DNA from: an uncultured Gemmatimonadales bacterium
GTDB lineage: Bacteria; Gemmatimonadota; Gemmatimonadetes; Gemmatimonadales; GWC2-71-9
Length of the DNA stretch: 64,000 nt
Direction of reading: 5' to 3'
NCBI GenBank assembly: GCA_963722825.1
Contig: CAVROI010000002.1
Coordinates: 634,463-698,462, forward strand
Numbering within the stretch: the stretch's first letter is position 1; the number at the start of each line of letters is the position of its first letter. The translations under genes were made by a program, and so were the position numbers. The notes under the pieces were generated by a model. That model was not told the DNA's origin. It worked only from the letters and a program-made list of their open reading frames with translations, and did no database searches. Below, in pieces: positions 16,408 to 54,285 of this stretch.

Positions 16408-18914
16408 TCAGGCCATCTGCCCCGCCAGGCATTCCCGAACGGCCTTCACGACTCCATTCGGCGTGAAAGGCTTCTGAAGAAAAATCGCGTCGGGCGCAAG
16501 CAGCCCGCGTCGAACGATTTCGCTGTCGGTGTACCCGGAGGTAAAGAGCACCGGGGTGCCCGGCATCAATTCCGTGATGCTCGCGGCAAGTTCTCTTCCG
16601 CCGATTCCCGGCATGACGACGTCGGCGAGCACCAGCGCGACGCGATCGCCCCTCGCCGTCAGCATCTCGAGTGCTTGGCGGCCGCTCTCCGCCTCGCACA
16701 CACGGAACCCGGCGTCCTTGAGCGCGCGGCCCGCGATGCTCCGCACCTCGGCTTCATCTTCCACGATGAGAATGAGCTCTCCCGACCCTCGACCGTCTCC
16801 AGCCTCCCCTGAGATCATGGCTTCCGGAGATTCGGTTGAGAATGGGAGATGGATCTTGAATGTCGCTCCATGGCCAGGCTCGCTGATCGCCCAGATGTAG
16901 CCCCCGGACTGCTTGACGATTCCATACACCGTCGAGAGCCCAAGGCCGGTGCCCTGTCCGACCTCTTTGGTCGTGAAGAACGGGTCGAAGATATGGCTCA
17001 GTGTGTTCGGATCCATGCCGTGACCAGTGTCGCTCACGGCGAGCACCGCATACCGGCCGGGTTGTAGGGCGAGGCTCGCATCGAGCCCCGGCGGAGGCGC
17101 GGTGAGATCGGCGGCGAAGGTCTCTATCGTGAGGGCGCCGCCGCGCGGCATGGCGTCACGGGCGTTGAGGGCAAGGTTGAGGAATACCTGCTCGAGCTGG
17201 CCGGGATCGGCCTTCACCGGCCGAATGCTCTCGCTCAGCCGCAGCGTGACGGTGCAGTCTTCGCCCATGACCCGCCGCACCGCCGGCTCGAATCGTCTGA
17301 GCACGCCGTTCAGATCGATCACCTCCGGTTTCAACACCTGACGCCTGCTGAAGGCCAGGAGCTGCGCGGTGACCGCGGCCGTGCGCTCGGCCGCCCTCTG
17401 GATGTACTCCATGTCTGCTCTCACGGTCTCGGGCACGTCGTGGCGCCGCAAGACGAATTCAGCGGCACCGAGCACCACCGACATCTGGTTGTTGGCCTCG
17501 TGGGCCACGCCGCCAGCGAGCCGTCCAACCGACTCCATACGGTGTGCATGACGCAATTGCTCTTCCGTTGCCCGCCGTTCCGTCACGTCCATGCAGACAC
17601 CGCTCATCGCCACCGGGCCATCCGGCCCGGTGGCGATGATGCGTCCCTGGTCGGCGATCCAGCGGATCCGTCCATCGGGCAGCACGATCCTGAACTCGTA
17701 GTCGAGCCGGCCGCGATCGCTCATCGCGCGGCGGACAGTCCCTTCCACGAAGTCGCGATCCTCGGGGTGGACACGGGAAAGGAAGTCCTGGTAGGCGGCG
17801 ACCCGGTCGCCGGGGCCCAGGCCATAGAGGCGGCGGAGTGCCCCGTCCCATACCAGACGGTTGTCCGCCGCCGACCACGACCAGATCCCCATCCCGGCCG
17901 CGTCCAGGGCGACTTGGAGCTGTTCGTCGCGCTGCCGGATCGCCTCCGTAGCCGATTCGCGTTCACGAGACACCGCCGCGGCGAGCGCGAGTCCGGTGAT
18001 CGCTACCACGCCGAGGTACCAGGCCACGGCCACCAGAGTGCCCGCCGACGAGGGGCCCACAAAGGGCCCGGCCCCGCGCGTCGTGTGCCACACGGCGACG
18101 ATCGACACTGTCAACGTCGTGAGTGAAGCTCCGCGCGCGCCGAAACGAAGGGCGGCCCAGATGACGAATGGGAAGAGGAGATAGAGGTAGTCGACGTCGC
18201 CGAGGAGCGGGAGGCGCACGTCCTGGCCGATCGCGAGCTCCGCGACTCCGACGGTCCCGAGACAGAGAAGCGTGATCTCGAGCACGCCGCGCGGAATCCC
18301 GCGCATCTCACGCGACGCTCCCCAGGCAAGAAGCACCGGTGCGACGACGAGTGCACCGAGCAGATCTCCCGTCCACCAGACCGCGATGGCATGGGAGATC
18401 CCGTTGGCAGGAATCTCGCTCGCCATCCACAGCACGGTCGCGCCGACCGTGGCGCTCACCAGGGCCCCTGCCGGGGCGGCCGCGCAGACCAGCGCTCGCA
18501 CCGGCCGAGCGGCGCATCGAGGCGGAGATGCGGTCCTCCCAGGCGGCGGAGGAGAAAGGCGGCGATCAGACCTTCGAGGGTGTTTCCGGCGGCGATGCCC
18601 GCCGCGGCCAGGAGCGGCACCGGAGTGGCGGCATTCGCGAGGAAGGCGCCGAGTGCGATGCCCGGCCAGTACCTGTACCCTAGAATGGCGAGGGCGGCGA
18701 TGGCGATGCCGGTGGGTGGCCAGACCAGCGAAACACTATGGCCGATCGATGCGTAACGCAGTCCCACGCGCGCCATGAGGGTGTAGACGGCGGCAAGCGT
18801 GATGACGGTAAGTAGATACGTGAGCGCAGGTGCTGAACGACTCGCGGCTCTGGGCAGAATTTCGACCCTTGAACGGGTTGACCGATACAAGGCGCCTGTA
18901 TGCAGATAGTACAC
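16408..18914 (-). pseudogene. MASE1-PAS hybrid sensor histidine kinase / response regulator; reading frame broken once near 18500
   Basis: ORF 18456-18914 encodes the first MASE1 helices. ORF 16408-18501, in a different frame, continues MASE1 and then has PAS, an H-box (GGVAHEANNQMSVVLG), HATPase (GTGLGLS) and REC (LILIVEDE...LADVVMPG). The two frames join at ...RLDAPLGR / VRALVCAAAPAG with a 1-nt offset. Confidence 0.75.
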
Positions 18915-34503: not shown

Positions 34504-34554
34504 TATCGACGGTTGTCACCGCGGGCCCGCCGCCCTTAGCTTGGCACAATCCCG

Positions 34555-36396: not shown

Positions 36397-37100
36397 CTCA
36401 TCACCTTGAGCATCTCGCCGGCCGCTCCCGGCCCGGTCTCCTTGCCCTCCTCGTGCTTGACGAAGACGTATGCCTCCGCCCACGGTTGCTCGCCGATTCG
36501 CCGCGCCCACGACTCCAGCTCCGCCTCGGTGTACGCCCCCCGCCGCATCCGGATGTAGCCCCACGAGGCCGTCGGTACCAGCGGAGCGCCGGGCCCTTCC
36601 TCCGCGTCCTCGTCCACCGCCACGAGCGCCACATTGCGGGCCCGAAGCGCGTCGTACACATCGTCCGCGAACCAGGTGGCATGCCTGAACTCCATCGCCG
36701 CGGTCCATTCCCGCGGGAGTCTGCCGAGAAACTCCTGGAGTCGACCGAGGTCCTTCTTGAGGCTGGGGGGGAGCTGGAACAGGGTCGGACCCCGACGGTC
36801 GCCCAGGACATTCGCGATCCGGAGGAAATAGTCGAGCGAATCGTCCGCGGCGGTCAGGCGATTGATGTGGGTGATGCGCCGAGAGGCCTTGAGCACGAAC
36901 CGGAACTCGGCCGGCACTTGCTCCGCCCACTGCATCAGCATGCGCTCGCTCGGCACCCGATAGAACGAGTTGTTGACTTCTACGGCCGGGAAGCGTCCGG
37001 CGTAGTACTGCAGCATACCATCCGCGGAGAGCTCAGACGGATAAAAGCTCCCCTTCCATTCCTTGTACGACCATCCGCTGGTGCCCACGAAGGCGCGCAT
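36381..37100 (-). CDS. DUF72 (YecE-like) family protein, paralog 2, co-operonic with ku
   Basis: VGTSGWSYKEWKGSFYP, YYAGRFPAVEVNNSFYR and GPTLFQLPPS. The ATG at 37100 lies 3 nt after the ku stop (37104-37106). Confidence 0.85.
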   Translation of the reverse strand: MRAFVGTSGWSYKEWKGSFYPSELSADGMLQYYAGRFPAVEVNNSFYRVPSERMLMQWAEQVPAEFRFVLKASRRITHINRLTAADDSLDYFLRIANVLGDRRGPTLFQLPPSLKKDLGRLQEFLGRLPREWTAAMEFRHATWFADDVYDALRARNVALVAVDEDAEEGPGAPLVPTASWGYIRMRRGAYTEAELESWARRIGEQPWAEAYVFVKHEEGKETGPGAAGEMLKVMSYSTT

Positions 37101-37103
37101 CGT

Positions 37104-37958
37104 CTACGAGGCCTTGCGGGCCCTCTTCTTGGCTGGCTTGGTGGTTTCGGAGGAGGATGACTTGGCGGACTTCTTCTCGGCGCCGCCCTTCTTGCCGAGG
37201 CTCGCCTTGAGTGCTTCCATCAGGTCGAGGATCTTCGTCTCCGGCTGTTCGCTGACCTCCGCCGTGATTTCCTGACCGTCGACCTTCTGCTGGATGGCGT
37301 CGAGCACGCGCTCCCGGACCGTGTCGCGATAGTTCTCCGGATGGAACTCGTCGGTAGCCGTCTGCTCGATGAGCTGCCGCGCCAGTGCCAGCTCGCCCTC
37401 CTTGACGGGCACGTCGGGGATCGGGACGTCTGCCGCGCTGCGAAGCTCCGCCTGATAGTGGAGCTGCTCCATCACGAGCACGCCGTCCATGGGGCGCACC
37501 AGCACCAGATACTGCTTGCCACGTGCGGAATACTGTCCCACCGCCGCGCGGCCGGTCTCTTCCAGCGCCTTGCTCAGCAGCCGGTAGGCCCGCTCGCCAC
37601 CCTTGTCCGGGCCGAGGAAGTAGGCCTTCTCGAGATAGAGACGGTCTACCTCGGAGAGAGGGACGAATTCGTTGACGTCGATGGTGTTAGTGGCCTTCTC
37701 GTCGAGCGCCTTCAATTCCTCCGGCGAGAAGACGACATATTGCCCCTTGGCGAACTCGTAGCCTTTCGCCATCTCGTCCCTCTCCACCACTTCCCCGTCC
37801 TTGGGGCAGATGTACTGCTGCTTCAGGCGAGTTCCGTCCTTCTTGTGCACCAAATTGAAGCTGATACTGGCGGCGGACTCGCTGGTGGAAAACAGGTTGA
37901 CTGGGACCGAGACCAGTCCGAAGGAAATCGTGGCGGAGGCCATCGAGCGGGCAGGCAT
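37104..37958 (-). CDS. ku: NHEJ DNA-end-binding protein Ku
   Basis: ATISFGLVSVPVNLFS..., KGYEFAKGQYVVFSPEEL and a basic Lys-rich C-terminal tail. The start is ATG 37958 or 37943. Confidence 0.9.
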   Translation of the reverse strand: MPARSMASATISFGLVSVPVNLFSTSESAASISFNLVHKKDGTRLKQQYICPKDGEVVERDEMAKGYEFAKGQYVVFSPEELKALDEKATNTIDVNEFVPLSEVDRLYLEKAYFLGPDKGGERAYRLLSKALEETGRAAVGQYSARGKQYLVLVRPMDGVLVMEQLHYQAELRSAADVPIPDVPVKEGELALARQLIEQTATDEFHPENYRDTVRERVLDAIQQKVDGQEITAEVSEQPETKILDLMEALKASLGKKGGAEKKSAKSSSSETTKPAKKRARKAS

Positions 37959-37997
37959 ACGATTGACAATAACGCGGGGAGGGCGTCACGCAAGCGA

Positions 37998-38062
37998 GTC
38001 GAGGGTCGAAGGTCCAAAGTCGAGGGTCGAGGGTCGAGAGTCGAACGTCGAGACCCTCGACC
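37998..38062. repeat. 8 tandem heptads (GTCGAGG-like) plus an inverted terminal copy, in the ku/ligD divergent intergenic region
   Basis: Read directly from the sequence, 37998-38053: GTCGAGG GTCGAAG GTCCAAA GTCGAGG GTCGAGG GTCGAGA GTCGAAC GTCGAGA. CCCTCGACC follows at 38054-38062 and is the complement of GGTCGAGGG. Confidence 0.9.
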
Positions 38063-38100
38063 TTAGACCCTGGACTCCGGACCCCCTAACTTTCACCCTC

Positions 38101-40635
38101 ATGGCTACCAAGAAGCCCGATCCTCTCGCCGCATACCGAGCCAAGCGTGAGCTGGCTCGCACCCCCGAGCCGGCCGGCGCGGTCGCGAAGAAACCCGCCG
38201 CGCCGGCTGGCGGCCTCTTCGTCGTTCACAAGCACGCCGCGAGGCGCCTGCATTACGACCTCCGCCTCGAGATGGGCGGCGTCCTGCAATCCTGGGCCGT
38301 GCCCAAGGGACCGTCGTACGACACCGCGGACAAGCGGCTCGCCGTCCACGTTGAGGATCACCCGCTCGAGTACGGTGATTTCGAGGGACTCATTCCCGAG
38401 GGGAATTACGGCGCGGGGGCTGTGATCGTCTGGGATCGCGGCCAGTGGGTCCCCGTGGGCGATCACGCCGATGGACTGGAGAAGGGAAAGCTGCTCTTCG
38501 AGCTGCGGGGGCGAAAGCTCCACGGCGTATGGACGCTCGTGAAGATCAAGAAGAGCGACCGCGACTGGCTGCTGATCAAGGAGCGGGACGCATACGCCGG
38601 CGCCGATGTTCCCGAGCCGCCGGAGGAGTCGGTACTCTCCGGACTCACCGTCGAGGAGCTGAAGGCCGGCCAGAGCCCGGCCGACGCCGTGCGGAAGGAG
38701 TTGACCAGGCTCGGGGCGCCGCGGAAGCCCCCGCGCCCCGAGACAGTGAAGCTCATGCTGGCCGAGACGCGCGACGAGCCGTTCTCCGCGGAGGGGTGGC
38801 TCTTCGAGCTCAAGCTCGACGGGTATCGCCTGCTCGCGGTGCGCGAAGGCCACGATGCCCGGCTCATCTCGCGCAACGGGAACGACCTCTCGTCCCAGTT
38901 TCCCGAGGTGATTCGCTCCCTCGCCGCGTTGCCGTTCGACCGGCTGCTCCTCGACGGCGAGGTGCTCGCGCTCGACGCCGCCGGGCGGCCCAGCTTCCAG
39001 CGGCTTCAGCAGCGGGCCCGTCTGAGCAGGGCGCTCGATATCCGCCGAGCGACGGTGGAGAACCCCGTTACGTTTTTCTCGTTCGATCTTCTGGCGTTCG
39101 AGGACTTCGATCTGCGCCCGCTGCCGCTCAAGCAACGGAAACCGATTCTCGAACGGCTGCTTCCGCCCGCGGGCGCCATCCGGTATCTCGAGCACTTCAA
39201 GCGCGACGGCATGGCGCTCTACGAGCAGGTGCGGCGCCTCGGCCTCGAGGGCATCGTCGCCAAACGGGCCGACGCGCCCTACCGCGCGGGTCGAGGGCCG
39301 GCCTGGCTCAAGATCCGCACCCGCCGCACGGACGATTTCGTCATCGTCGGGTACACCAGGCCCAAGGGGTCTCGCGGCGGATTCGGCGCGCTCTATCTGG
39401 CACAATACGTGGGCAAGGAGCTCGTCTTTTCCGGCAGCGCCGGTACCGGATTCAGCGACAAGCAGCTCGCCGACCTGCGCTCGCGCCTCGAAAGCATGCG
39501 GCGGGACGACCCGCCGTGTATCGGTCCGATTCCGAAGGAGAAGGGCGCCATCTGGGTCGAGCCACGACTCGTGTGCGAAGTGGAGTTCACCGAGCGAACC
39601 GACGATGGGTTGCTCCGCCAGCCGGTCTTCCTGCGTGAGCGGGACGACAAGGAGCCCGAGGAGTGCATCCGTCAGGAAGACGAGTCGCCCCGTGACACCG
39701 ACGCGGTCGATCCTGCCGGCGAGTCACTGGAACCACCGGAGCCGGAGCCGATCGTTCAGCGCTTCTCGAACCTCGACAAGGTCTTCTGGCCAGAGGAGGG
39801 ATACACCAAGGGCGACCTGATCGAGTACCATCGTTCGATCGCCCGGTGGATCCTGCCGTACCTGAAGGACCGGCCGGTGGTGCTTACCCGGTACCCCGAC
39901 GGCATCGAAGGGAAGTCGTTCTTCCAGAAGGACGCTCCGCCCTTCATTCCCGACTGGGTCCGGACCGAACGGAAATGGAGCGAACAGGCGCAGCGTGAGA
40001 TCGATTACTTCATATGCGACGACGAAGCCACCCTACTCTACATCATCAATCTCGGCACGGTCCCGCTGCACATGTGGGCGAGCCGCGTCGCGAGCATCGA
40101 CCGGCCGGATTGGTGCGTCCTCGATCTTGATCCCAAGGAGGCCTCATTTTCCGACGTCGTGCGGGTGGCAGAGGCCACGTACGCGCTGTGCCGGAGCCTC
40201 GGCCTCCCCAGCTTCATCAAGACCAGCGGCTCCTCGGGTCTCCACGTGCTCGTGCCGCTCGGGCGCCAGTGCGCGTACGACGAGGCCCGCGCCCTGGGTG
40301 AGCTGCTCGCCAGAGTAGTCGTCGCGGAGTTGCCGGACATCTCGACCATCACCCGGCAGGTCTCCCGCCGTGGCGGAAAGGTCTACGTCGACTACGTTCA
40401 GAACGGAGCCGGCCGCCTTCTCGCGTCACCCTTCTGCGTCCGGCCGCTGCCCGGCGCGCCGGTTTCCACGCCGCTCAAGTGGAGCGAAGTCAACGACTCG
40501 CTCGATGTCACCAGGTTCACCATCCGGACGGTCCCTCAGCGCATGCGGAAGTTGAAGGCCGATCCGCTGGTCGAGGTCCTCCGGCTCGCTCCGGATCTCG
40601 ACGAGGCCCTCGATCTGATCAGGGGGCGACTCTGA
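38101..40635 (+). CDS. ligD: multidomain DNA ligase D (PE - ligase - polymerase/primase order)
   Basis: PE domain (HKHAARRLHYDLRLE...VEDHPLEY), ligase KxDG (FELKLDGYRLLA) and a primase-polymerase domain (SGSSGLHVLVPL). The start is the ATG at 38101; the track ORF start (37801) reads through the heptad repeat and the ku 5' end. Confidence 0.92.
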   Translation: MATKKPDPLAAYRAKRELARTPEPAGAVAKKPAAPAGGLFVVHKHAARRLHYDLRLEMGGVLQSWAVPKGPSYDTADKRLAVHVEDHPLEYGDFEGLIPEGNYGAGAVIVWDRGQWVPVGDHADGLEKGKLLFELRGRKLHGVWTLVKIKKSDRDWLLIKERDAYAGADVPEPPEESVLSGLTVEELKAGQSPADAVRKELTRLGAPRKPPRPETVKLMLAETRDEPFSAEGWLFELKLDGYRLLAVREGHDARLISRNGNDLSSQFPEVIRSLAALPFDRLLLDGEVLALDAAGRPSFQRLQQRARLSRALDIRRATVENPVTFFSFDLLAFEDFDLRPLPLKQRKPILERLLPPAGAIRYLEHFKRDGMALYEQVRRLGLEGIVAKRADAPYRAGRGPAWLKIRTRRTDDFVIVGYTRPKGSRGGFGALYLAQYVGKELVFSGSAGTGFSDKQLADLRSRLESMRRDDPPCIGPIPKEKGAIWVEPRLVCEVEFTERTDDGLLRQPVFLRERDDKEPEECIRQEDESPRDTDAVDPAGESLEPPEPEPIVQRFSNLDKVFWPEEGYTKGDLIEYHRSIARWILPYLKDRPVVLTRYPDGIEGKSFFQKDAPPFIPDWVRTERKWSEQAQREIDYFICDDEATLLYIINLGTVPLHMWASRVASIDRPDWCVLDLDPKEASFSDVVRVAEATYALCRSLGLPSFIKTSGSSGLHVLVPLGRQCAYDEARALGELLARVVVAELPDISTITRQVSRRGGKVYVDYVQNGAGRLLASPFCVRPLPGAPVSTPLKWSEVNDSLDVTRFTIRTVPQRMRKLKADPLVEVLRLAPDLDEALDLIRGRL

Positions 40636-40657
40636 TGTATTGGTGCAAACGAAAGAA

Positions 40658-43600
40658 TTACCGGCCTGTAACCTTCGGGTCCTGGTCGAACCGGGTCCTC
40701 ACGTATTCTCGCGCGCTCTCAGCCGGAAGCTTCACAGTGCCCGGACCACTCCTCACGAAGAAGTCGCCGTCCGGCACAGATTCCATGCCCTTCCACTTGA
40801 GGAAAACCGGCTCCGGGCTCCGCTGACAGCTGACGACGCATACGGTCTTCCCCTGGACGATCTGCGTCTTGGGATCGATGCACGTTCCGGCCCGATCACC
40901 GAGTCCATTGCGCACCACCTGGGCCAAGTGGCGCATGAACTTGTCGTCGCTCTCCAGCCGGTCCTGCTCGATGCCGACGATCGAACCGTCGTCGCCCACC
41001 CCGATCAGCAGGTCGCCGCCCTCGGTGTTGAGGAACGCGGCTACGGTCTTGAGCGCTGCGTGTGTCACCAGCTTATCGTCCTGGCGATCCTCCTTGAGAC
41101 TCCATCGTAGGGTGGACTTGAACTCGAGCGTCTTCGACTCGCCCCGCTTGATCAACTCCTCCGCGTTGCGGTGGGCGCGGAAGTATTGGTCGAACAGAAA
41201 GGTCTTCACCGCCTCACCGAAGGCCCGGTCATCGGTGATGCGTTTGTACAGCTCGAAGTTCGAGTCCACGATCTCCTGGATCACGTGCTCCACCTTCTGG
41301 TCGAAGGTGAGCCGGACGTTCTCCCGGGTATTGACACGTGCCGCGGCATCCAGGCCCGCATCGTCGTCGAGTTTCTCCATTATCTGGCCCAGCGTGACCC
41401 GGTGCTCGGGCCCGAGGTTGACTCCGAAGCGCTCGTTGAGTTCGGCGATGATCCGGGACAGCGACTCGAGCTCTTCCGGACCGGTCTGATAGCCGCTCCC
41501 GGCGCTGACCGGGTTGAGCGTACCGGGCCGGCGCTCGAGCGGGATCTTCCCGCTGCTCGTCTGCTGGAGACGATACGACTCCATGTCGATGTTCTGTTGT
41601 ACCTCGCGCGGCAGCTCGACGCGGTCTCTGGGAGGAGCCGCCGAAGATAGCGGGCGAACACGTAGAGCTTTTCCAGGTCAATGTCGGAAAAGGTCAGCAC
41701 CTGCGCCAAGAACGTATAGAGCCGGATGTACTCCATGAGTTGGCTGCGGAACTCCTGCCGCTCGTCCCGCGCCAGGCCCTGAAACCGGTCGACCAGCGGC
41801 CCGAGCACGGCGTAGAGCCGGTCCTGGGTGGCCTTGGCGTCGAAGTACACCTTCGCGAAGGCATCTACGTCGGCTTCGGTGTAGACCGGGAACGCGGCCA
41901 GACGGGTCTGAATCTCGTACAACAGGTTGGGGTCGGTGGCCTCGGACAGCAACGTGGTCTCGTAGTACGGCTCGAAGGCAGCCCGGATCTCGTCGGCGCC
42001 GTTGGCGAAGTCCAGCACGGTGGTGCCGGTCTTCCCGGGTGCGTCCGGTTGAGCCGCGAGAGCGTCTGCACGGCGTTGACCCCCCGAGCTTCTTGTCCAC
42101 GTACATGGTGTGCAGCAGCGGCTGATCGAACCCGGTCTGGAACTTGTTTGCCACCACCAGAAACCGGTGTTCCGGCTGGTCGAAGGTCCTGCGCGCGTCT
42201 GCGTCTCTGGGCAGCGCCGTTCATTCCCGCCTCGGTGTAGGACTTGCCCGCGGTCCTGCACCGTGCCCGAGAACGCCACCAGCGCCTTGAAGGGGATATC
42301 CGCGCTCGGCAAGATACGTGGTCCAGGGCACGCCGGTAGCGCACAGCGTGCAGGCGCGAGCGGGTCACAATCATCGCTTTCGCCTTGCCGCCTATCTCGC
42401 GCTTGGATCTGCGCCGCGAAGTGCTCGACCATGAGCTTCACCTTCTCCCCGATCGCGTGCGGGTGCAGCTCCACGAAAGACTTGAGCAGGTATTCCGCCT
42501 TCTTCCGGTCGTAGTGCGGGTCGTTCTCGATCTTCTTGAGTAGCCGCCAGTAGGCGGTGTACGTGGTGTAGCTTGCGAGGACGTCCAGGATGAATCCCTC
42601 CTCGATCGCCTGCCGCATGCTGTAGAGATGGAACGGGATCAAACCTCCCGTCAGGGCGTTTCGTGCCGAACAGCTCCAGCGTCTTCTGCTTCGGCGTCGC
42701 GGTGAACGCGAAGGTGGACAGGTTGGGCAAGCGCCCGCGCTGCTCCATCTTCGGCCACGATGCGTGTCTCTCCAGCTCCTCCTCCGGACTCTCGGCCTCG
42801 CCTCCTCGCTCTCCGCCTCTTCTAGGTCTTCGGAAGCGAGCACGGCCTTGAGGCTCTTGGTGCTCTCGCCAGACTGGCGACGAATGGGCCTCGTCCACGA
42901 TGAGCGCGAAGCGCTTCCCCGGCAGCTCCCCGATCTCCTCGGCGATCACGGGGAACTTCTGGAGGGTGGTGACGATGATGGTTTTGCCCGACTCCAGCGC
43001 CTCCTTGAGCTGGCGGCTCGTCGTGTCGATGTTCTCCACCACGCCGAGGGTCTGCTCGAACTGCCGCATCGTGATCTGGAGCTGGCGGTCGAGCACCCGG
43101 CGGTCGGTCACAATGATGATCGAGTCGAATACCCGCTCGTCGGCGGCATTGTGGAGCGTGGAGAGCTGGTGGGCCAGCCAGGCGATAGTGAAGCTCTTCC
43201 GCTTCCCGCCGAGTGCTGAATCAGGTATCGGTGCCCGGTCCCGTTAGTCCGGGCGTCGGCCACCAGGCGGCGGACCGCATCGAGCTGCTGGTAGCGTGGG
43301 AAGACGAGGAACGCTTGCGGTCTTCGGCCCTTGTCGTCCTCTCGTCTATCTCGTGGATGAACTGGCGAACGAGATCGAGCACGCTGTCCCGTGCCCACGT
43401 TTCCTCCCACAGATACGCCGTGGCGAAAGCCCGCCTGCGTGGGATGATACGGGCGGGTTCCGGCACCGCCGAACTTGCCCTGGTTGAACGGAAGGAATCG
43501 GGTCTTGAGTCCCTCGAGCCGGGTGGTGACGTACACGAGGTCCGGGTCCACGGCGAAGTGCGCCAGGCAGCGGCCTTTGGCGAGGAGCGGCTCTCGCGGA

Positions 43601-44198
43601 TCGCGATCGGTCTTGTACTGCCGGATCGCGTCCTCGACCGTCCTGACCATTGAGGGGGTTCTTGAGCTCGGCGGTGAAGATTGGGATGCCGTTCAGGAAT
43701 AGGACCAGGTCGAGGCAGCTTCTCATTCTTGGTGCTGTACCGCACCTGCCTGACCACCGAGAACAGGTTCGCGGCATAGAGCCGGCGGGTCTCTTCATTG
43801 AGTCCGCTTGCGGGACGGAAGTAGGCCAGCCGGATCTTCACCCCGGAGTCCTTGAGCCCATTCCGCAGCACCTCGAGCGCGCCGCGCCGCTCGATCTCGG
43901 ACGCCATACGCTCGAGGAATCGGTCTTTGCACCCGCCGCCGTGGTGCTGGGCCAGCCTCTGCCACTCCTTTGGTTGTGTGGCCAGGACAAAGTCCACCAC
44001 GTCGCGCGGCAGGAGACAGAGCGTGCGGTCGTAGTCCTCCGGGCGCCGCTTGCCGTAACCGCCGGGGGGAGTCTCGCCGTAGGGCGGTGGTGTCTCGCGA
44101 ATGACCGCTGTCTCGCGAGCGCAGGCATCGGGGCCGTGCCGCAGCAGGCCGCACTCGATCGCGTCCTCGAAGGAGCGTTCGGAGATCTCGGGACTCAT
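40658..44198 (-). pseudogene. hsdR: type I restriction endonuclease subunit HsdR with a C-terminal AlbA_2/Schlafen-like domain; multiply frameshifted
   Basis: HsdR-like peptides are scattered over all three minus-strand frames in at least 9 track ORFs. Examples: FEDAIECGLL; LDLVLFLNGIPIFTAELKNPLNGQ; TVEDAIRQYKTDRD; FATAYLWEETW; YLIQHSAGSG (frame lost inside the Walker A); VDEAHSS (frame lost just after); NLSTFAFTATPK; ANKFQTGFDQPLLHTMYVDKKL; VNAVQTLSRLNRTHPG. I traced about 17-18 frame switches by hand. The C-terminal ORF (40658-41584) ends with GESKTLEFKSTLRW... (AlbA_2-like). Confidence 0.85.
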
Positions 44199-45239
44199 GC
44201 CGGATCACCCGGATCCGCAATCGGCGATCTCCCCCGGCCCCTTACGTCCCTACGTTGCCGGTCGATGGCACCTTTGAACGAGTTGTGGTCGGTGATCGAG
44301 CGCGAGCGACATTCTATCATGGCGACTCGCACGTTCTCCCCTCCGTGCTCGTCACCTTCAACCCAACCTTCGTGGGCCTTGTATGCATCGGCCTGTTTGG
44401 CCAACAAGACTCGGAAAGCGCTCGAGCCGCGGGGGCCCGGGATCCAAGCCGCTTACACGCAACCACAGTGTAGAATTGGGCCAGTCCCTCGATGATCTCG
44501 AGGTCGGTCCCCGCGAAGGCTTCCGTATCCCATTTTTCGTTGTCGATATCGCGGCCAAGGTGGGTATAGGCGTGTGCCAGCTCATGGGCCAACACGACGA
44601 TGGTCAGTGCTTCAACCTGCAAGCTGAGCGCCGCCATGATGCCGATCACCATCCGATAGAGCCGGATCTCCGGGACTCGAAAATAGTAAGCTCCCAGGAC
44701 GTCCTCTCTTATGCCGGCGAGGCGCCCGACTGCCTTCGTTTCGTCGAGTTCCTTCAGGAGGCCATATGCCATCCGGTACACGCTGTCGATCTCGCTCAAA
44801 TCGGCAAGATGCCCGGACGTTGTCCATGGTCCAGGAGGTGTGGGCAAGCGTTCCTTGAAGAAGGCTGTACCGTGAAGGATGGCTTCGATAGCAGGTCGGT
44901 GGAGCAGAAGCCATTCGAGACCGGAGAGCTGCTGGAGCAGGTCGCCAAACGCTCGGGGCATGCCACCGACTACATGGACCGGCACTGCTTGCGTCTCATT
45001 GCCGACGGTCAGGCGCAGCGCGGTCTCGGTGCGGATGAGGTCCCTAAGCGCCCCGTTCCACTGTCGGTAGGTTCTCTCCACGGTTGCCCGTACCCCTGGC
45101 GATTCCTGCTCCAGAAGCGCTGCCCGCGCCGCTCCAGATCAGGTGACCGTCCCGAGCGGGCACTGTGCGGCCCGTCCCCTGAGGGCTGGGCGTAGTGCCG
45201 CGTCGCATCTCCCCACGGCACATCAGAGATGGGGGTCAT
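44195..45239 (-). pseudogene. HExxH zinc-metallopeptidase-like protein (ImmA/IrrE-like?), apparently frameshifted twice
   Basis: Central ORF 44317-45081 contains VVLAHELAHAYTHLG. The ATG at 45239 overlaps the hsdS stop (ATGA) but is in another frame. The 3' continuation (...LLAKQADAYKAHEGWVEG..., ORF 44195-44407) is in the third frame, and its TGA overlaps the hsdR ATG (ATGA at 44195-44198). Confidence 0.55.
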
Positions 45240-46606
45240 GCCGCCGGCTCTTGTGTGGTGGCGCATTCTCGTACGTCGATTTTGCCAGTCACGGCGGCGG
45301 AGATGAGGGTCTTCCGCAGCTCTCTTAGGGATTCAATGGCAACACGGACCTTGGCCACAAGGGCATGGTGTTTCATCCCCTCTCGGTCGAGAGCATTCAC
45401 GATGACTTGCTGCTCCTTGACCGACGGAAACGCCACCTTCCTACTCGCAGTGGTCGTCAAATTCATTCTTGCTCTCGTCGCTCCGGACGCAAGCGATCCC
45501 GCAGCCGCCGAAGCAGTAGCAGACAGTTGGAATGCGAGGAAGCGTGGTAGGACCTTTCTCCGCTCGAGCCGGAACCGGAAGCAATCCGCCTTCACCATCG
45601 CTGGTTCGATCCCCCCGGGAGCAACACAGGCTCGACCGACCGGGTTCCGCTCGTCGCCAAGCCCAGCGATGAGAAGATCTCCGGCTTGGACTCTGTGGTC
45701 GCCGAGTTGACGAGCGTACGCCTCGTCGAGGTAGACTTGGTCTTCGTCCAGGAATTCGGTCCAGCCGATGTTCTGGAGACGTATGACCCGAACGCCAGAT
45801 GCGGAATAGTGCTCTGACTTCAGCCCGCTCCCGAAAGGCCCGTCGCACCTCGACAGTGTCACGCGGGCCAGTGAGAGGTTTTCCCAGTGTTCCGGAATCT
45901 CCCCTAGCCACTCGACGCCCGACTCCTTCATCGTGACATCTGTGTCGAGGCCCTTGGTTACAGTCCGGGTGATGAGCGCCGAGCGTTTTTCGTGCAGGAG
46001 CTCGATCAGCCGCTCCTTCTTCGCGATCAACGCATCGACTCGTGCCGTCTCAGTGTTCAGGAAGGCAGCGATAGAGCACTGCTCGTGGTCGGGAGGCAGC
46101 GCCAATTCGTATGTCGCCATTTCGCTGTCAGTGATGGCGGGGAAACTCACGCCCTTCGAGTTCGCCACCACCCGCTCCACGAAGTACGGTGCTCGCAGCG
46201 CATACGCCGCATAGTCGGTCTTGAACTCTTCGCCTGGACGCACGACCGCGAAACCGGTAGAGACGACTGTATGGGGTTCCGGCTCTCTAATCTGGGCAAT
46301 CGCGCGGAGGTACGTGCGGACGGTAGACACGATCACGTCGCCGTCTCGAACAAGCCGTCGGGCACGCGATGGCGCCGAACCAAAAGTGAGCGGCTCCCGT
46401 TCGATGACGCGACCAAGGCCATCGACTCCCCCGATGTCCACGTAAGACATCTCAAAGGTTGGATCCGTGTCTTCAGGCAGGGTTTCCACGTTGAGCGTTA
46501 CCAAGTCCTTCAGTCGCTTCACGCTCCAATGTGCTGGAATCTCCCCGAGCCACTCGACACCGGAGTCCTTGTAGGCTGGATACGGCTTGTATCGTCGTGC
46601 GCTCAT
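45236..46606 (-). CDS. hsdS: type I restriction-modification specificity subunit HsdS (two target-recognition domains)
   Basis: Duplicated pattern SGVEWLGEIPAHW / SGVEWLGEIPEHW, each followed by a variable TRD and conserved coiled-coil spacers (ARVDALIAKKERLIELLHEKRSALI; ...LRELRKTLISAAVTGKIDV). The ATG at 46606 overlaps the abiEii stop (ATGA). Confidence 0.9.
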   Translation of the reverse strand: MSARRYKPYPAYKDSGVEWLGEIPAHWSVKRLKDLVTLNVETLPEDTDPTFEMSYVDIGGVDGLGRVIEREPLTFGSAPSRARRLVRDGDVIVSTVRTYLRAIAQIREPEPHTVVSTGFAVVRPGEEFKTDYAAYALRAPYFVERVVANSKGVSFPAITDSEMATYELALPPDHEQCSIAAFLNTETARVDALIAKKERLIELLHEKRSALITRTVTKGLDTDVTMKESGVEWLGEIPEHWENLSLARVTLSRCDGPFGSGLKSEHYSASGVRVIRLQNIGWTEFLDEDQVYLDEAYARQLGDHRVQAGDLLIAGLGDERNPVGRACVAPGGIEPAMVKADCFRFRLERRKVLPRFLAFQLSATASAAAGSLASGATRARMNLTTTASRKVAFPSVKEQQVIVNALDREGMKHHALVAKVRVAIESLRELRKTLISAAVTGKIDVRECATTQEPAA

Positions 46607-47490
46607 CGCCACGGTCCTCCGGGTTCCCAACCGTTTTCGAAGGGCGCCACCGCCATGATGCTCTCCCGCACAGGGCCGAGAAACCGGATGATCTGCTCGC
46701 CAATGACCTCGAACCTGACAGGGGGTGAAACGAGCACGGCACCTGCGGTGAGATAAGCCCGCCATCGCGCCTCGATCTCTGGGATCAGGTAGAAGGCGGG
46801 GGTCAGGGGGCGTGGCCTCTCCGCGGCCCATGGGGTCCGCCGCCGGTCGAAACAGGCGCCGACGGCACGTTGGAGCGCCGCGCCTCCAAACGAAAACGCG
46901 GTCGAAAGCGCCCAGACGTCATGAAAGTCCTTCATCCGGCTGTTCCGAGTGTCCAGCGAGATTATCGCCTCGAATTTCTCCGCCACGCTCGCCTCTCGCG
47001 GGTAGGCGCAAAGACGCGGCGCGGGCAGACCGCTCAGCATGAGCGGGTATTCGATCTCTTCGGGTCCGGTCACCAGCGCGTCGCCGAATCCGAAGTCCAT
47101 CTGAACTCGGATGCGCGCAGCGCCGAGGAAGGCCAGAAAGCGAGCGCGCTTACCCGGATACTGCTCCGGCCCCCGAGTGTCCTCGATAGTCAGGCCGGTG
47201 AGGTCGAACCGCAGGCCGTCCTCAGGACACGGAACCGCGCAAATCTCCCCCACCAGCGCGCGGATCGCTGCATCGTCCGTCGAGCCGAAGGTCAGGACAT
47301 CCACGTCCCGCGTGGCACGGTAGGGATCGGGCATCCATGCGGTCAGCAGGCTGGCCCCTTTGAGAACGCACCGTTCGCGCGCCGCCGAGGCGCCGAGCCG
47401 GTAGAGCAGCCGCTCGTCGGCATAGCGGACCAGTGTCCGCTCGAATTCTTCCCCCCGTTTCTTGGCCTGGGTGAGAAGGCGCGCCTGCAC
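46603..47490 (-). CDS. abiEii: nucleotidyltransferase AbiEii/AbiGii-family toxin (type IV TA)
   Basis: ...FERTLVRYADERLLYRLG...CVLKGASLLTAWMPDPYRATRDVDVL...SRMKDFHDVWAL. The start is uncertain: GTG at 47490, or a non-canonical codon near 47520. The 525-aa track ORF is an out-of-frame read-through of abiEi. Confidence 0.8.
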   Translation of the reverse strand: MQARLLTQAKKRGEEFERTLVRYADERLLYRLGASAARERCVLKGASLLTAWMPDPYRATRDVDVLTFGSTDDAAIRALVGEICAVPCPEDGLRFDLTGLTIEDTRGPEQYPGKRARFLAFLGAARIRVQMDFGFGDALVTGPEEIEYPLMLSGLPAPRLCAYPREASVAEKFEAIISLDTRNSRMKDFHDVWALSTAFSFGGAALQRAVGACFDRRRTPWAAERPRPLTPAFYLIPEIEARWRAYLTAGAVLVSPPVRFEVIGEQIIRFLGPVRESIMAVAPFENGWEPGGPWR

Positions 47491-47510
47491 TGACGCTGCG
47501 ACGTCGGGGC

Positions 47511-48142
47511 TCAGATCAACCTCGCGTCGAGGGCAGCGCGCAGGCGACGGGAGGGGAGGACCTCCTCCACGCGCGCGAGCTCGGCCACGGTGACCTTCCG
47601 CTGCCGCAGCGCGTCCGTCAGCGCCTCCATCGCGGTTTCTGCTCCCACGAGACGCTCGAATCGGAAACAGTCGGCGACGGTTCGCGCCGGGCTCGTGATC
47701 CTGCCAGGCACTCCTTCGAATTCGACGTCCCTGACACCGAATATCCTGGCCGGCCCGCTGAAGCGCACGATGCGCAGCCTCAGCTGGGGCACGCGCGGGA
47801 CACGCGCCTTGTGCGGAATGGCGAGCCAGGTTTCCGCGGGCGCCTGGGTGCCGATGCCGTGAACGCGGAGAGCGGAAAGCAGGCAGACGACGCTGGTGGG
47901 AACGCGGGCGCACGCCAGTGCCAGGGAGTAATCTTCTGTCGGTTCGGCATCCACCAATCGGTAGAGTCCTCGGCCGGCGTGCTCGACCATCCCGGAGCGG
48001 ACAAGGGCTGGGAGCTGGTCCCGCGTCAGCCCAGCCGCTTCGAGCTGGCTCGGCCGAAAAAAGCTCCCAGCTTGGCCGCCCGAAGCTGTTTGAGAGGCGT
48101 CGGTACCTTCTGGCGCGATTTGTCGGCATTGGTCGCTGGCAT
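47511..48142 (-). CDS. abiEi: AbiEi-family antitoxin; 5' wHTH region separated from the body by a 1-nt frame offset at an A6/T6 run
   Basis: ORF 47511-47990 (MVEHAGRGLYRLVD...). The same frame stays open upstream, reading ...RPSQLEAAGLTRDQLPALVRSG. ORF 48026-48214 contains MPATNADKSRQKVPTPLKQLRAAKLGAF from the ATG at 48142. The two frames meet at the homopolymer at 48057-48062. Confidence 0.7.
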
Positions 48143-48181
48143 GCCTGCAACTTGGGTCGCCGGAACCTTGGTGTCAACACG

Positions 48182-48216
48182 AAATGTCGGCATATATGAT
48201 ATGAATGCCGACATTT
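48182..48216. promoter_or_regulatory. 12-bp perfect inverted repeat with an AT-rich 11-nt spacer between the hsdM stop and the abiEi start (operator and/or terminator candidate)
   Basis: AAATGTCGGCAT (48182-48193) and ATGCCGACATTT (48205-48216) flank ATATGATATGA. A minus-strand TTGACA lies at 48177-48172, just downstream in the direction of transcription. Confidence 0.6.
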
Positions 48217-48220
48217 TGTG

Positions 48221-50383
48221 TCAGGGAGAATTCGACCCCGTTACCTCCGCCAGCATCCGGACGATATCGCCCTCGATCGTGCGGATGTCCGCCTCGATCT
48301 CCTCAACCGGCCGCGGCAGCTTGTAGCGGTAGAAGTGCCGGTTGAAGTTGATCTCGTAGCCTACGACGCCTACCAGACCGTCCTTGTCGTCCCGGCGTCC
48401 AGTGTCGATCCACGCGTCGGGAACGTGGGGTCTCACCTCCTGGTCGAAGAACGCCCGCACGCTGGCGGGCACGCCTTCAGTGTCGGCGGGATCGTCTCCC
48501 GGAGGTAGCGGAACGCTCTCGGAGTCGCGCAGCTCGGGATCGGACTCGGGATTGCCATCCCGGTCGCGGCAGATGGCGGCCGCCTCGTCCCGTTCCGAGA
48601 GCGCCGAAAGAATGGCCTTCCGGGCTTGCGCCGGAATCTTGATACCCGTCAGCGTCGCGGCGCCGTCGAGGACGTGCTCGAACTCGTTGCGGTCCTTGAC
48701 GAGCGTGGCTGGGAGACCGTTCAGCAGTTGCTTGAGGGCCTCCTGGAGCTCCCGGCCTTGAGCCTCCTCTCTGGCGCCCGCGGCGCCCTTCTTCTTCGAC
48801 TGTACCAGCCCCTGGAAGCCCTTTTCCTCGTCGAGCCGCGCGATCCGTTCCGGGCTTGCCTGGAAGTTGAGACGTAGCGGCCGCTCCACCGTGATCTTGC
48901 GGAAGCCGAAGTTGGTGGTCGGGAAGATGCGACTGACCGTGATTGCTTCCTCCTCCCCGTCCTTACTGGCCCGGCGGGTGTCGCCGTCCTTGAAGCCGGC
49001 GAGCAGCTCGAGAATATCCCGTGCCTTTTCGGGCGGGATCTCGCGCCGCTTGGCGCCCATATTCTTGCGCATCAACATCCAGAAAGCTTGCGAGGATGCG
49101 TCGATGAGTTGGACCTGGCCTTTTCGCGCCGCCGCCTTGCGGTTGGTGATCACCCAGACGTAGGTGGCAATCCCGGTGTTGTAGAAGAGTTCCTCGGGGA
49201 GGGCGACCAGCGCCTCGAGCAGGTCGTGCTCCATGACGAACCGCCGTATCTCGCTCTCGCCGCTGCCCGCATCTCCTGTGAAGAGTGGCGAGCCGTTCAT
49301 GATGATGGCGATGCGTGCGCCGCCCTCCTTCGGTCCTTTTGCGTGGGCCAGCATATGCAGCAGGAAGAGCAGCTGGCCGTCGCTGATCCGGGGCAGTCCG
49401 GGCCCGAAGCGACCAGCCGCGCCGCGCTCGTTCTCGCTCCGGACGGCATCCTCGTCCCGCTTCCAGTCCTTGCCGTAGGGAGGATTGGCGATGAGGTAGT
49501 CGAACCTCTGGCCCCCATGACGGTCGTTCGAGAGCGTGCTTCCGTACGCGATACTATCGGCGTCGCGCCCGGTCGGGTCTTTCATGAAGAGGTCCGACTT
49601 GGACACGGCCCAGGTCTCCGGATTCACCTCCTGCCCGAACAGGTGGATCTCCGCTTCGGGGTTGATCGGAGGGCTCAATTGATCTCCGTTCTTCCGCCGC
49701 CCGACCGTGATGTGCTCCTTAGTGATCATCAGCATGCCCCCGGAGCCGCAGCACGGGTCATAGACGGTGCACACCACCCCGCGGCGTCGAACCCTGGACT
49801 GGTCGCCGGCGAGCATCAGGTCCACCATCAGGTGGACGACGTCTCGCGGAGTAAAGTGCTCACCGGGGTTCTCGTTCAGCGCCTCATTGAACTTCCGGAT
49901 CAGCTCCTCGAAGATGGTTCCCATCGTGGGGTTGTCGATCCTGTCCGGGTGCACATCTACCTGCTTGAACCGCTCGAGAACCTTGAACAGGAGGCCGGCT
50001 TCGTCAAGCTTGCTGATCGTGTTGTCGAAGTCGAACTTCTCGAGCACTTCGCGCATGTTCGGGCTGAAGCCGGCGATGTAGTTTCGAAGATTGGCGGCCA
50101 CATGCGGTGCGTCGCTCAGAAGCTTCTCGAAGTCGTAGCGCGAGGTGTTGTAGAAGGCGAAACCCGAGGCCCGGCGCAGCTGCGCGTCGAGATCCTGGAG
50201 ACCCTTGCCACGCAGTTCCGCCTGTCGCCGGAGCACTCGCTCCTTGGTATCTGCGAGAACGCAGTCGAGCCGGCGGAGCACCGTGAGGGGAAGGATCACG
50301 TCCTGGTACTTGCCGCGTTTGAACGTGTCGCGGATGAGATCTGCCACTCCCCAGAGCCAGCTTACGATTTCGCTATGATTCAC
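48221..50383 (-). CDS. hsdM: type I restriction-modification DNA methyltransferase subunit HsdM (N6-adenine, long form)
   Basis: HsdM N-terminal pattern (LWGVADLIRDTFKRGKYQDVILPLTVLRRLD), SAM motif (VYDPCCGSGGML) and catalytic LIANPPYG. The likely start is the GTG at 50383, 7 nt after GGAGG; the track ORF starts at TTG 50428. Confidence 0.92.
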   Translation of the reverse strand: MNHSEIVSWLWGVADLIRDTFKRGKYQDVILPLTVLRRLDCVLADTKERVLRRQAELRGKGLQDLDAQLRRASGFAFYNTSRYDFEKLLSDAPHVAANLRNYIAGFSPNMREVLEKFDFDNTISKLDEAGLLFKVLERFKQVDVHPDRIDNPTMGTIFEELIRKFNEALNENPGEHFTPRDVVHLMVDLMLAGDQSRVRRRGVVCTVYDPCCGSGGMLMITKEHITVGRRKNGDQLSPPINPEAEIHLFGQEVNPETWAVSKSDLFMKDPTGRDADSIAYGSTLSNDRHGGQRFDYLIANPPYGKDWKRDEDAVRSENERGAAGRFGPGLPRISDGQLLFLLHMLAHAKGPKEGGARIAIIMNGSPLFTGDAGSGESEIRRFVMEHDLLEALVALPEELFYNTGIATYVWVITNRKAAARKGQVQLIDASSQAFWMLMRKNMGAKRREIPPEKARDILELLAGFKDGDTRRASKDGEEEAITVSRIFPTTNFGFRKITVERPLRLNFQASPERIARLDEEKGFQGLVQSKKKGAAGAREEAQGRELQEALKQLLNGLPATLVKDRNEFEHVLDGAATLTGIKIPAQARKAILSALSERDEAAAICRDRDGNPESDPELRDSESVPLPPGDDPADTEGVPASVRAFFDQEVRPHVPDAWIDTGRRDDKDGLVGVVGYEINFNRHFYRYKLPRPVEEIEADIRTIEGDIVRMLAEVTGSNSP

Positions 50384-50502
50384 TGCTATGCCTCCGGTGC
50401 TTGCCGGGAGAAACGAAATGTTCGTCAAAGTAACATCATGGATCGTTACAGATTAGCCGTGTGGTGTGACATCGGTCCGGTGAGACGATCGGACAAGGGT
50501 CA

Positions 50503-51144
50503 TTGATGCCGGACCTCCTGGTGCGCCCGCCCGATGCCTGGCTTCTCTTCGTTCTGGCGCACGGGGCCGGAGCCGGGATGAACCATCGTTTCCTCGAGGC
50601 CGCGGCGCTGTCCCTCGCGGAGCGGGGGATCGCGACCTTCCGCTATCAGTTCCCATACATGGAAAACGGCGGTGGCCGGCCCGATCCGCCCAGTGTGCTG
50701 GAAAGCTCCGTCCGCGGCGCCGTGGAAAGGGCCATCGGCGCCGCGCCGGGCCTGCCCACGGTTGCTGGCGGCAAGTCGCTGGGCGGCCGGATGACGTCGT
50801 CCGCGGCGGCGGCGGCACCCCTGCCCGGCGTTCGAGGCCTCGTTTTTCTCGGCTTCCCCCTTCACCCACCCGGACAACCCGGCACCCGCCGCGCCGACCA
50901 TCTCGATCGCGTAGACTTGCCCATGCTCTTTCTGCAGGGCACCCGCGATTCCTTCGCGCCTCTCGATTCCATCACTCAGGTTTGCCGACATCTCGGCGAC
51001 CGCGCGACTCTCCACGTGGTGGAGGGGGGAGATCATTCGTTCGGAGTCCTCAAGCGATCCGGCCGCACGCCGGGCGAGGTGATGGATGAGCTGGCGGATG
51101 CCGTTGCCGGCTGGGCTCGACCGCTGGCGGGCGTCGCAGCGTGA
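50503..51144 (+). CDS. alpha/beta hydrolase-fold protein (KANL3/Tex30-like small hydrolase)
   Basis: [16 protein letters not shown]..., GGKSLGGR nucleophile elbow and [10 protein letters not shown]...GGDHSF. The likely ATG is at 50506. The stop overlaps the next gene's GTG (GTGA at 51141-51144). Confidence 0.75.
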
Positions 51145-54044: not shown

Positions 54045-54285
54045 CAGTATTCTGCCCGGACCCTCGCAGCTCACGACGATCCGGGCATCCGCTGGCCTTC
54101 GGTCACCAAAGAGCCGATCGAGAGATCAACCGGGATCTCCCGATCCACCAGCAGGTTGGGGTCCTGCTCGATCACCGGTGAATCCGGTTCCGTCCTCTCC
54201 CGCCTTCGGGCACATCCGTTGCATCCCCGCATCAAGTCCCCCGACAGCAGTTCCTACACGCCGCATCATTCTGGAGTGCCTCATC

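Follow-up and report, generated by a model that had tools for sequence, protein, structure and literature searches.

The central 2.1 kb of the type I restriction subunit gene hsdR contain about 21 indels that, judging from the sequence, are likely to be consensus errors of a long-read metagenome assembly in a strain-variable defense island. The analysis concerned the window, that is, the whole stretch of 64 kb of DNA, which was compared with related loci, among them the sister contig L082 (ERZ25039533 contig_57890). The indels and their positions, their confinement to one tract of hsdR, the absence of stop codons and of extra substitutions, and the lack of the island's other frameshifts in L082 were established directly. 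The original prediction had listed three causes without ranking them. Assembly error and population heterogeneity fit best, because the damage consists of indels only, the frameshifts of the island outside hsdR are missing from a near-identical independent contig, and the island is strain variable, whereas recent inactivation is disfavored.

The defense island and its genes

The island separates ligD from a hydrolase/uvrD-exo pair. Its genes are given below, together with the kinase gene in which the sole frame break beyond the island was found.

40617..50503, defense island hsdM-abiEi-abiEii-hsdS-HExxH-hsdR, 9.9 kb, between ligD and the hydrolase/uvrD-exo pair
48221..50383 (-), hsdM, methyltransferase subunit, intact (PADLOC MTase_I, 4e-256)
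47511..48142 (-), abiEi, antitoxin and repressor, with a 1-nt deletion at 48057 (T6, where L082 has T7)
46603..47490 (-), abiEii, nucleotidyltransferase toxin, intact (PADLOC AbiEii, 5.8e-89; single-frame tblastn matches to relatives)
45236..46606 (-), hsdS, specificity subunit, intact, 456 aa (PADLOC Specificity_I, 5.6e-109; gapless against L082; identical entry among public proteins)
44195..45239 (-), HExxH gene (motif HELAH), with two 1-nt deletions at ~45126 and ~44424
40658..44198 (-), hsdR, type I restriction subunit, readable only with 16 frame switches
16408..18914 (-), MASE1-PAS-HisKA-HATPase-REC sensor kinase gene, with one frame break at ~18500

The hsdR gene lies on the same strand as hsdM and hsdS, and the three form one locus. 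HsdM residues 1-719 match relatives as one segment, the best match among those listed being 83% identical. The long neighboring genes ligD, hsdM, uvrD-exo, and tamB are unbroken, as had been claimed, and the same is true of hsdS and abiEii; within the island, hsdM, hsdS, and abiEii (4.5 kb) are untouched by frame breaks. The further breaks that had been reported in the HExxH gene, abiEi, and the MASE1 kinase gene are also real, with three in the island and that of the kinase outside it. The abiEi break was placed by frame-aware alignment to AbiEi of L001, L007, L019, and L038. As for the kinase, positions 3-104 of the MASE1 Pfam profile match the ORF at 18456-18914 and positions 111-299 the ORF at 16408-18501, and a codon-usage hidden Markov model (HMM) switches frame at 18494/18495. 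When hsdR is set aside, 3 frameshifts in 6.3 kb of the island compare with 1 in the 54 kb of flanks, and this enrichment points to a generally poorer consensus over the strain-variable island.

The stop codon of the HExxH gene overlaps the hsdR start (ATGA). The gene belongs to a family of hypothetical proteins of about 345 aa, of which P0251 to P0256 share 57-60% identity with its product in frame-aware alignment. Searches of Pfam, NCBIfam, and PADLOC gave no match for this product, and no homolog was found by tblastn in 81 related loci.

In the related Gemmatimonadales contig L084, the segments that match 29357-40616 and 50504-59425 adjoin each other directly, without the island. Convincing direct repeats or attachment-like sites were not found at the island borders. 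A Ku/LigD end-joining locus adjoins the island. Type I systems with an AbiE pair between hsdM and hsdS are exemplified by L001, in which the order is hsdM-abiEi-abiEii-(extra gene)-hsdS-hsdR, as in the window, and homologs of AbiEi and AbiEii were matched by tblastn across related loci. The HsdR of these AbiE-bearing systems likewise combines HSDR_N, SWI2_SNF2, T1R_D3, and SLFN_AlbA_2. L001 differs in having GmrSD before hsdS, whereas in the window the HExxH gene stands between hsdS and hsdR.

hsdR reads as one gene across 16 frame switches

The intact homologs P0001, P0002, P0004, and P0013 were aligned with positions 44230..40640 of the minus strand by a frame-aware dynamic program. Each of the four gave a single full-length colinear path that starts from the ATG at 44198, needs 16 net frame switches, and meets no in-frame stop before the natural one at 40658-40660. 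A 17th switch, in the variable C-terminal tail, was rejected as an artefact of the alignment. The frame breaks are confirmed in the sequence, and the interpretation of the fragments as one HsdR, colinear end to end with single homologs, is borne out. The estimate of 15-18 frameshifts in the original prediction agrees with the number of net switches but falls short of the roughly 21 underlying indels. As given, the sequence does not hold one uninterrupted frame of about 1,180 codons.

The threaded HsdR is 83-84% identical to the intact proteins of 1,178-1,185 aa (984/1185 for P0001). It violates 12 of 523 conserved columns, and 5 of these violations are mis-threaded junction residues. Compared with the TIGR00348 hsdR model, it reached 208.7 bits (E value of 1.6e-61), which is below the curated cut-off of 284.55. 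Pfam matches on the fragments identified an HSDR_N nuclease, an SF2 motor, T1R_D3, and a C-terminal SLFN/AlbA_2 domain. The order of an N-terminal nuclease, an SF2 motor with Walker A and DEAH, and then T1R_D3 is that of the type I family, and the GSG(K)S and DEAH motifs are readable in the alignment. Among the matches listed from a search of 5.8 billion proteins, there was no HsdR more than 84% identical to that of the window. The family is conserved at 82-90% across phyla and counts thousands of metagenome proteins. By these sequence comparisons, hsdR appears to be ordinary and probably functional, belonging to a highly conserved and very widespread family whose members carry a SLFN/AlbA_2 domain at the C terminus.

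Indels in hsdR are confined to its central part

Alignment at the DNA level with 11-14 intact hsdR genes yielded 22 indels private to the window, 21 of them with a length that is not divisible by 3. They are distributed as follows.

41628..43722 (-), tract of 2.1 kb to which every one of the 21 frame-breaking indels is confined, roughly one in 100 nt (DNA alignment, leave-one-out control, and HMM)
1-nt insertions: ~43720, 43639, 43444, ~43430, 42877, 42634, 42401, 42321, 42296, 42245
2-nt insertions: 42218, 42197
3-nt insertion: 42767, which may be natural
1-nt deletions: 43460, 43342, 43312, 43199, ~42798, 42084, ~42036, ~41630
2-nt deletion: 43319

The three breaks that had been singled out by eye all correspond to indels in this list: the one between GSG and K of the Walker A motif is the 1-nt deletion at 43199, the one just past DEAHSS the 1-nt insertion at 42877, and the one in the C6 run the 1-nt deletion at 42084. 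Large deletions are absent, as had been noted; 21 of the 22 events measure 1-2 nt, and none exceeds 3 nt. The 13 insertions and 9 deletions are intermixed and show no deletional bias. The slight excess of insertions is atypical for nanopore data. Compensating pairs are present, namely, 43460/43444, separated by 16 nt, and 43319/43312, which add up to a net change of -3 nt. No events lie in the first 477 nt of hsdR or in its last ~970 nt.

In the leave-one-out control, 11 intact hsdR homologs had 0-1 private indels each, all of them multiples of 3. The same method applied to hsdM, which has the same nucleotide identity to relatives (78-80%), gave 2 private indels, both multiples of 3. The codon-usage HMM, run over the whole 64 kb, found 15 same-strand frame switches without a nearby stop codon, all within hsdR, and for every one of the remaining same-strand switches a stop was present within 39 nt. 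At otherwise invariant nucleotide columns, the rate of private substitutions in the tract is 5.0%, double the mean of the homologs, and by the same measure it is 4.8% in the intact hsdM (2.08 times the mean). The relative amino acid divergence of HsdR is 1.32 in the core versus 1.42 in the clean N terminus.

Comparison with the sister contig and other assemblies

Much of the island is shared with L082 as a nearly identical cassette.

44032..49450, cassette 99-100% identical to L082 (binned blastn identity, gap and mismatch list)

Beyond the cassette, the 5' part of hsdM and hsdR are only 75-86% identical to L082. The 5' part of hsdM likewise diverges from L082, yet it is clean. Within the cassette, L082 has the frame-preserving base at all three frameshifts of the window (48057, 45126, and 44424); conversely, at the nine indels that are L082's own, it is the window that has the base preserving the frame. 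The hsdR gene of L082 contains 38 frameshifts and no stops, with 913/1175 identities to P0001, so that the same kind of data yields the same pattern; its hsdM and abiE genes are also broken. Over the hsdR tract, which is only ~78% identical between the two contigs, 19 of the 21 events are missing in L082 and 2-3 positions are common. Three +1 events of the window (43720, 43639, and ~43434) match L082 events in position and sign (rough p of ~0.01), and these coincident events could reflect common ancestry instead of common error.

L082 and L084 have neighboring ENA accessions (ERZ25039533 and ERZ25039564), Flye-style names of the form "contig_N," and many broken genes; in L084, tamB is split and the ligD and DUF72 genes are truncated. 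Of the 55 relatives listed, a broken hsdR was found in 4/18 long-read-style versus 1/37 short-read-style loci.

Origin of the indels

From the contig names and the fragmentation, we infer that the window originates from a nanopore project, in which case it would be part of the genome of a Gemmatimonadales-like bacterium assembled from long metagenome reads. The consensus of the tract may have been built from very few reads or from mixed, divergent hsdR alleles, that is, at low or mixed coverage, and the result would be a sequence of about raw-read quality with ~1% indels. When the idea of mixed alleles was checked, the tract yielded no patches of identity with the L082 allele, which shares 2 identical runs of at least 30 bases with the window there, no more than some unrelated homologs do. 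Nanopore consensus indels that cause frameshifts have been described, and the modal read accuracy of R10.4 is 99% (PMC9262707). A soil workflow for metagenome-assembled genomes consisted of Flye and one round of Medaka (PMC12313526). The window resembles known long-read assembly errors in several respects: conserved genes carry single-base indels without a substitution load, near-identical DNA shows different error sets in independent assemblies, and long-read-style relatives are broken more often than short-read ones. It differs in that such errors are usually genome-wide and mostly in homopolymers, whereas here ~21 fall into 2.1 kb and the 54-kb flanks contain one. Also at odds with error is how strikingly the events cluster: all fall within 2.1 kb, and the gene hit is the one that bacteria can commonly do without. 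Moreover, homopolymers of at least 5 bases, of which the tract has two in all, hold 1 of the 21 events (42084), which is atypical of a polished nanopore consensus; the detail of the original prediction that homopolymer errors were involved thus finds no support.

The foremost alternative, although an unlikely one, is a real and very recent loss of restriction, in which a burst of single-base indels in hsdR, such as one round of error-prone repair synthesis over its core, left an orphan HsdM-HsdS methyltransferase working. The limitation of the damage to hsdR next to intact hsdM and hsdS, the location of most events outside homopolymers, the three positions in common with the sister allele of L082, and the adjoining Ku/LigD locus would all be compatible with this. 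Some 20 indels would, however, have to become fixed without substitutions, stops, or larger deletions, and we know of no bacterial process that places ~21 indels of 1-2 nt within 2.1 kb in this way. In addition, L082 shows the same pattern at other sites along with broken hsdM and abiE genes, which speaks for data quality, and the other frameshifts of the island are missing from this near-identical contig. Loss of HsdR with methylation kept does occur naturally, as in PG2-type strains of Mycoplasma agalactiae, in which the restriction subunit is likewise unreadable and the methylation and specificity genes are intact (PMC9465063). However, that documented knock-out consists of one homopolymer indel, a 2-nt insertion in a poly(A) tract that causes a premature stop and is common to several strains (PMC9465063), whereas the ~21 indels of the window are of both signs, and nothing suggests that they are common to a population. 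Somewhat less likely again is one localized shower of one-base indels in the motor core of hsdR, for example, in the course of error-prone repair synthesis at a break, beside the Ku/LigD locus; it would have switched restriction off and left the methyltransferase intact, and 2-3 of the lesions would be common to a sister allele in another population.

A chimeric join, in which reads of another organism with a homologous gene would have supplied the hsdR core and the locus would not be one gene of a single genome, is considered very improbable. The conservation of the family across phyla (82-90%), with its thousands of metagenome proteins, would make such a join conceivable, and the comparison with L082 does reveal differing hsdR and hsdM backbones around an identical cassette. 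However, the threaded HsdR is colinear end to end with single homologs, and the hsdR of L082 is a sister allele: its unique C-terminal tail is that of the window, and 64 nucleotides, spread over the whole gene, are common to these two alone. The nearest neighbor is unchanged at the tract borders, no single homolog shares long identical runs with the window, and a join by itself would not make frameshifts.

Even less credible is an old hsdR pseudogene that decayed neutrally after restriction was lost, although many breaks in one gene beside intact methylation genes might suggest it. In mutation-accumulation studies, spontaneous indels in bacteria are commonly about 1/10 as frequent as base substitutions. 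At this ratio, one would expect ~20 indels to be accompanied by ~200 substitutions over the 2.1 kb and by several in-frame stops, whereas there are no stops and the substitution load equals that of the intact hsdM and of the clean N terminus. Slow neutral decay would not yield such damage, which is of indels only, of mixed signs, and with compensating pairs, without deletional bias or any indel of more than 3 nt, and is accompanied by neither stops nor excess substitutions. Programmed recoding or phase variation of hsdR can practically be dismissed: phase-variable type I systems exist (PMC9465063), but the 16 net switches are of both signs, lie at non-repetitive sites in a tract with two runs of at least 5 bases, and are common to no intact homolog.

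Implications

Were the indels real, they would be the trace of an unknown process of localized indel mutagenesis that acts on a defense gene. If they are consensus errors, as is favored here, the finding is a caution rather than biology: annotation should treat the locus as an intact type I system, and surveys of defense decay should count it neither as an orphan methyltransferase nor as a restriction pseudogene. Long-read metagenome assemblies would then be able to hold dense patches of non-homopolymer indels in strain-variable, horizontally shared genes, and such patches would escape genome-wide quality scores.

The hsdR frame breaks

The frame breaks in hsdR are real in the sequence as given, and they fall within a single gene:

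44198 to 40658, minus strand: hsdR, type I restriction subunit, from domain matches and frame-aware alignment

Its ORF fragments match HSDR_N, SWI2_SNF2/ResIII, T1R_D3, and a C-terminal SLFN_AlbA_2 domain. A protein search with the hand-stitched hsdR translation as the query scored 8,000 relatives, of which the top ones were intact proteins of 1,169-1,202 aa from Gemmatimonadota, Acidobacteriota, Eisenbacteria, Burkholderiales, and others, with 82-84% identity to the stitched translation. Frame-aware protein-to-DNA alignment with four intact relatives as references yielded a full-length, colinear path from the ATG at 44198 that contains 16 real frame switches; compared to one of these relatives, P0001, the threaded gene showed 984 of 1185 identities and no in-frame stops. 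The original prediction had assigned the segments to one hsdR gene with about 15-18 frameshifts, and the colinear path and its 16 switches therefore confirm both the single-gene reading and the count.

For a defence gene, the HsdR family that carries a C-terminal SLFN/AlbA_2 domain (P0001-P0120; related loci L001-L081) shows unusual conservation. Its members share 82-90% protein identity across phyla and groups, namely, Gemmatimonadota, Acidobacteriota, Eisenbacteria, Burkholderiales, and cyanobacteria, which suggests a recent wide horizontal spread. Matches to AbiEi and AbiEii homologs were found by tblastn across the L001-L081 loci.

DNA alignment of the window with 11-14 intact hsdR genes identified 22 window-private indels, 21 of which are not multiples of three: ten 1-nt and two 2-nt insertions, as well as eight 1-nt deletions and a single 2-nt deletion. 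The remaining event, a 3-nt insertion at 42767, may be natural. Frame counting is blind to some of these events, which compensate each other: a deletion at 43460 and an insertion at 43444 are separated by 16 nt, and the deletions at 43319 and 43312 amount to a total loss of 3 nt. The indels are confined to a tract at 41628-43722, with the initial 477 nt and the final ~970 nt of the gene being clean. This tract contains two runs of at least five identical bases, and only the event at 42084 is inside one. The same procedure applied to hsdM, which has 78-80% nucleotide identity to the same relatives, revealed two private indels, both multiples of three; every intact hsdR homolog had 0-1, all multiples of three. 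In a codon-usage HMM run over the whole 64 kb, the 15 same-strand frame switches that lack a nearby stop all fall inside hsdR, and the remaining same-strand switches all have a stop codon at most 39 nt away, like an ordinary gene boundary.

Private substitutions at nucleotide columns invariant among intact homologs
Region; private substitutions; ratio to homolog mean
hsdR frameshift tract; 5.0%; 2.0
Intact hsdM; 4.8%; 2.08
Clean hsdR 5' end; 6.3%; 2.0

The hsdR damage is indel-only. The relative protein divergence of the window HsdR from other family members was 1.32 in the core, 1.42 at the N terminus, and 1.14 at the C terminus. It breaches 12 of the 523 columns that are at least 98% conserved (homolog mean, 3.9), and 5 of these 12 breaches are mis-threaded junction residues. 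In bacteria, indels are commonly about one-tenth as frequent as base substitutions, and about 20 neutral indels should therefore bring about 200 substitutions and several stops. Slow neutral decay was rejected because nothing of this kind was seen, and an old neutral pseudogene is contradicted by the absence of stops and of excess substitutions.

Island setting and other frame breaks

L084, a related contig of 265 kb (ENA ERZ25039564 contig_5342, an accession close to that of the sister contig described below), shows synteny with the window to the left and right of the locus but lacks 40617-50503, with the hydrolase and uvrD-exo genes coming straight after ligD. It follows that the locus is a strain-variable island acquired by insertion. 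The best named relatives of the ligD product are Gemmatimonadales. No integrase was found in 40617-50503, nor were flanking direct repeats. Two further features belong to the island:

44195 to 45239, minus strand: HExxH gene (HELAH motif) between hsdS and hsdR, its stop overlapping the hsdR start
48177 to 48221: 17-nt inverted repeat, 94% complementary, 11-nt spacer (ACACGAAATGTCGGCAT / ATGCCGACATTTTGTGT), just upstream of abiEi

The inverted repeat is a candidate AbiEi operator. Nothing in Pfam, NCBIfam, or PADLOC matched the HExxH gene, and none of the 81 related type I loci contained a homolog; the family of this gene consists of ~345-aa hypothetical proteins (889 matches, with 45-60% identity among the matches listed).

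Single-nucleotide deletions interrupt abiEi (48057) and, twice, the HExxH gene (~45126 and ~44424). Outside the island, a single break was found; at ~18500, it splits a MASE1-PAS-histidine kinase-receiver gene (16408-18914, minus strand) and has no homopolymer at the site. No interruption was found in hsdM, hsdS, abiEii, ligD, tamB, or uvrD-exo. The large neighbours (hsdM, hsdS, ligD, tamB, and uvrD-exo) are thus intact, and the breaks in genes other than hsdR lie mostly in the island (three inside, one outside), both as originally predicted. Of the 25 frame-breaking indels in the window, 24 are inside the island; with hsdR left out, there are 3 breaks per 6.3 kb of island versus 1 per 54 kb of flanks (calculated chance, ~0.004).

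Comparison with a sister contig

The window HsdS falls into one 90% cluster with a protein encoded by the sister contig L082 (ENA ERZ25039533 contig_57890; 9,858 bp). Both sequences are 99-100% identical from ~49450 to ~44032, a 5.4-kb cassette that runs from the 3' part of hsdM through abiEi, abiEii, hsdS, and the HExxH gene into the initial ~170 nt of hsdR. Outside it, identity falls to 75-86% in the 5' part of hsdM and in the remaining hsdR. The pattern resembles a specificity cassette exchange through recombination in the conserved genes hsdM and hsdR, or else assembly chimerism. Within the cassette, the two differ by single-base indels, and each time one of them keeps the homolog-supported frame: L082 at the three window breaks (48057, where it has T7 versus T6; 45126; and 44424), and the window at all nine L082 breaks. 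Since the supported frame alternates, the island frameshifts appear from this comparison to be private to each assembly.

The L082 hsdR is a sister allele: it and the window gene have a unique C-terminal tail in common and uniquely share 64 nucleotides (1-15 for other homologs). The L082 allele carries 38 frameshifts and no stops at 913 of 1175 identities to P0001, an indel-only pattern like that of the window, at mostly different positions. Three +1 insertions (43720, 43639, and ~43434) match in position and sign, in a region of ~78% identity; for instance, GAC[G]GTC has an additional G. These coincidences (rough chance estimate, p ~0.01) could result from systematic error, shared reads, or shared ancestry. 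A search for L082-like sequence patches inside the tract found none.

Origin of the frame breaks

The "contig_N" names hint at Flye-type long-read assemblies, as do the frequent single-base breaks. In L084 (1-12049), tamB is present as two ORFs, ligD lacks its N-terminal domain, and the DUF72 gene is shortened, whereas all three are intact in the window; these broken genes suggest that L084 is a frameshift-prone assembly. Nanopore consensus indels cause frameshifts, and modal R10.4 read accuracy is 99% (PMC9262707); a soil MAG workflow used Flye followed by one Medaka round (PMC12313526). Among the relatives' loci listed, hsdR was broken in 4 of 18 long-read-style versus 1 of 37 short-read-style loci.

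Read support that was very low or came from mixed alleles in this part of the strain-variable island would have left the tract unpolished, at about raw-read quality (~1% indels), within an otherwise well-polished contig. We consider this origin likely, with hsdR itself probably intact. Several observations do not fit this origin: the confinement to 2.1 kb, given the lack of L082-like patches in the tract and the clean hsdM 5' part, although it is also divergent from L082; the three insertions that coincide with L082 events; and the hsdR events themselves, which are mostly outside homopolymers, with slightly more insertions than deletions. A genuine recent indel burst that abolished restriction, leaving the methyltransferase as an orphan, is nevertheless unlikely: it has no known mechanism, and it contrasts with the documented natural case, in which Mycoplasma agalactiae hsdR has one 2-nt insertion within a poly(A) tract (PMC9465063). 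A chimeric join at hsdR is contradicted by the colinear, full-length path, and programmed recoding by the many frame-breaking indels, none of which is shared by an intact homolog.

The underlying biology is most probably ordinary: a type I system that is intact and has an AbiE pair embedded in it.
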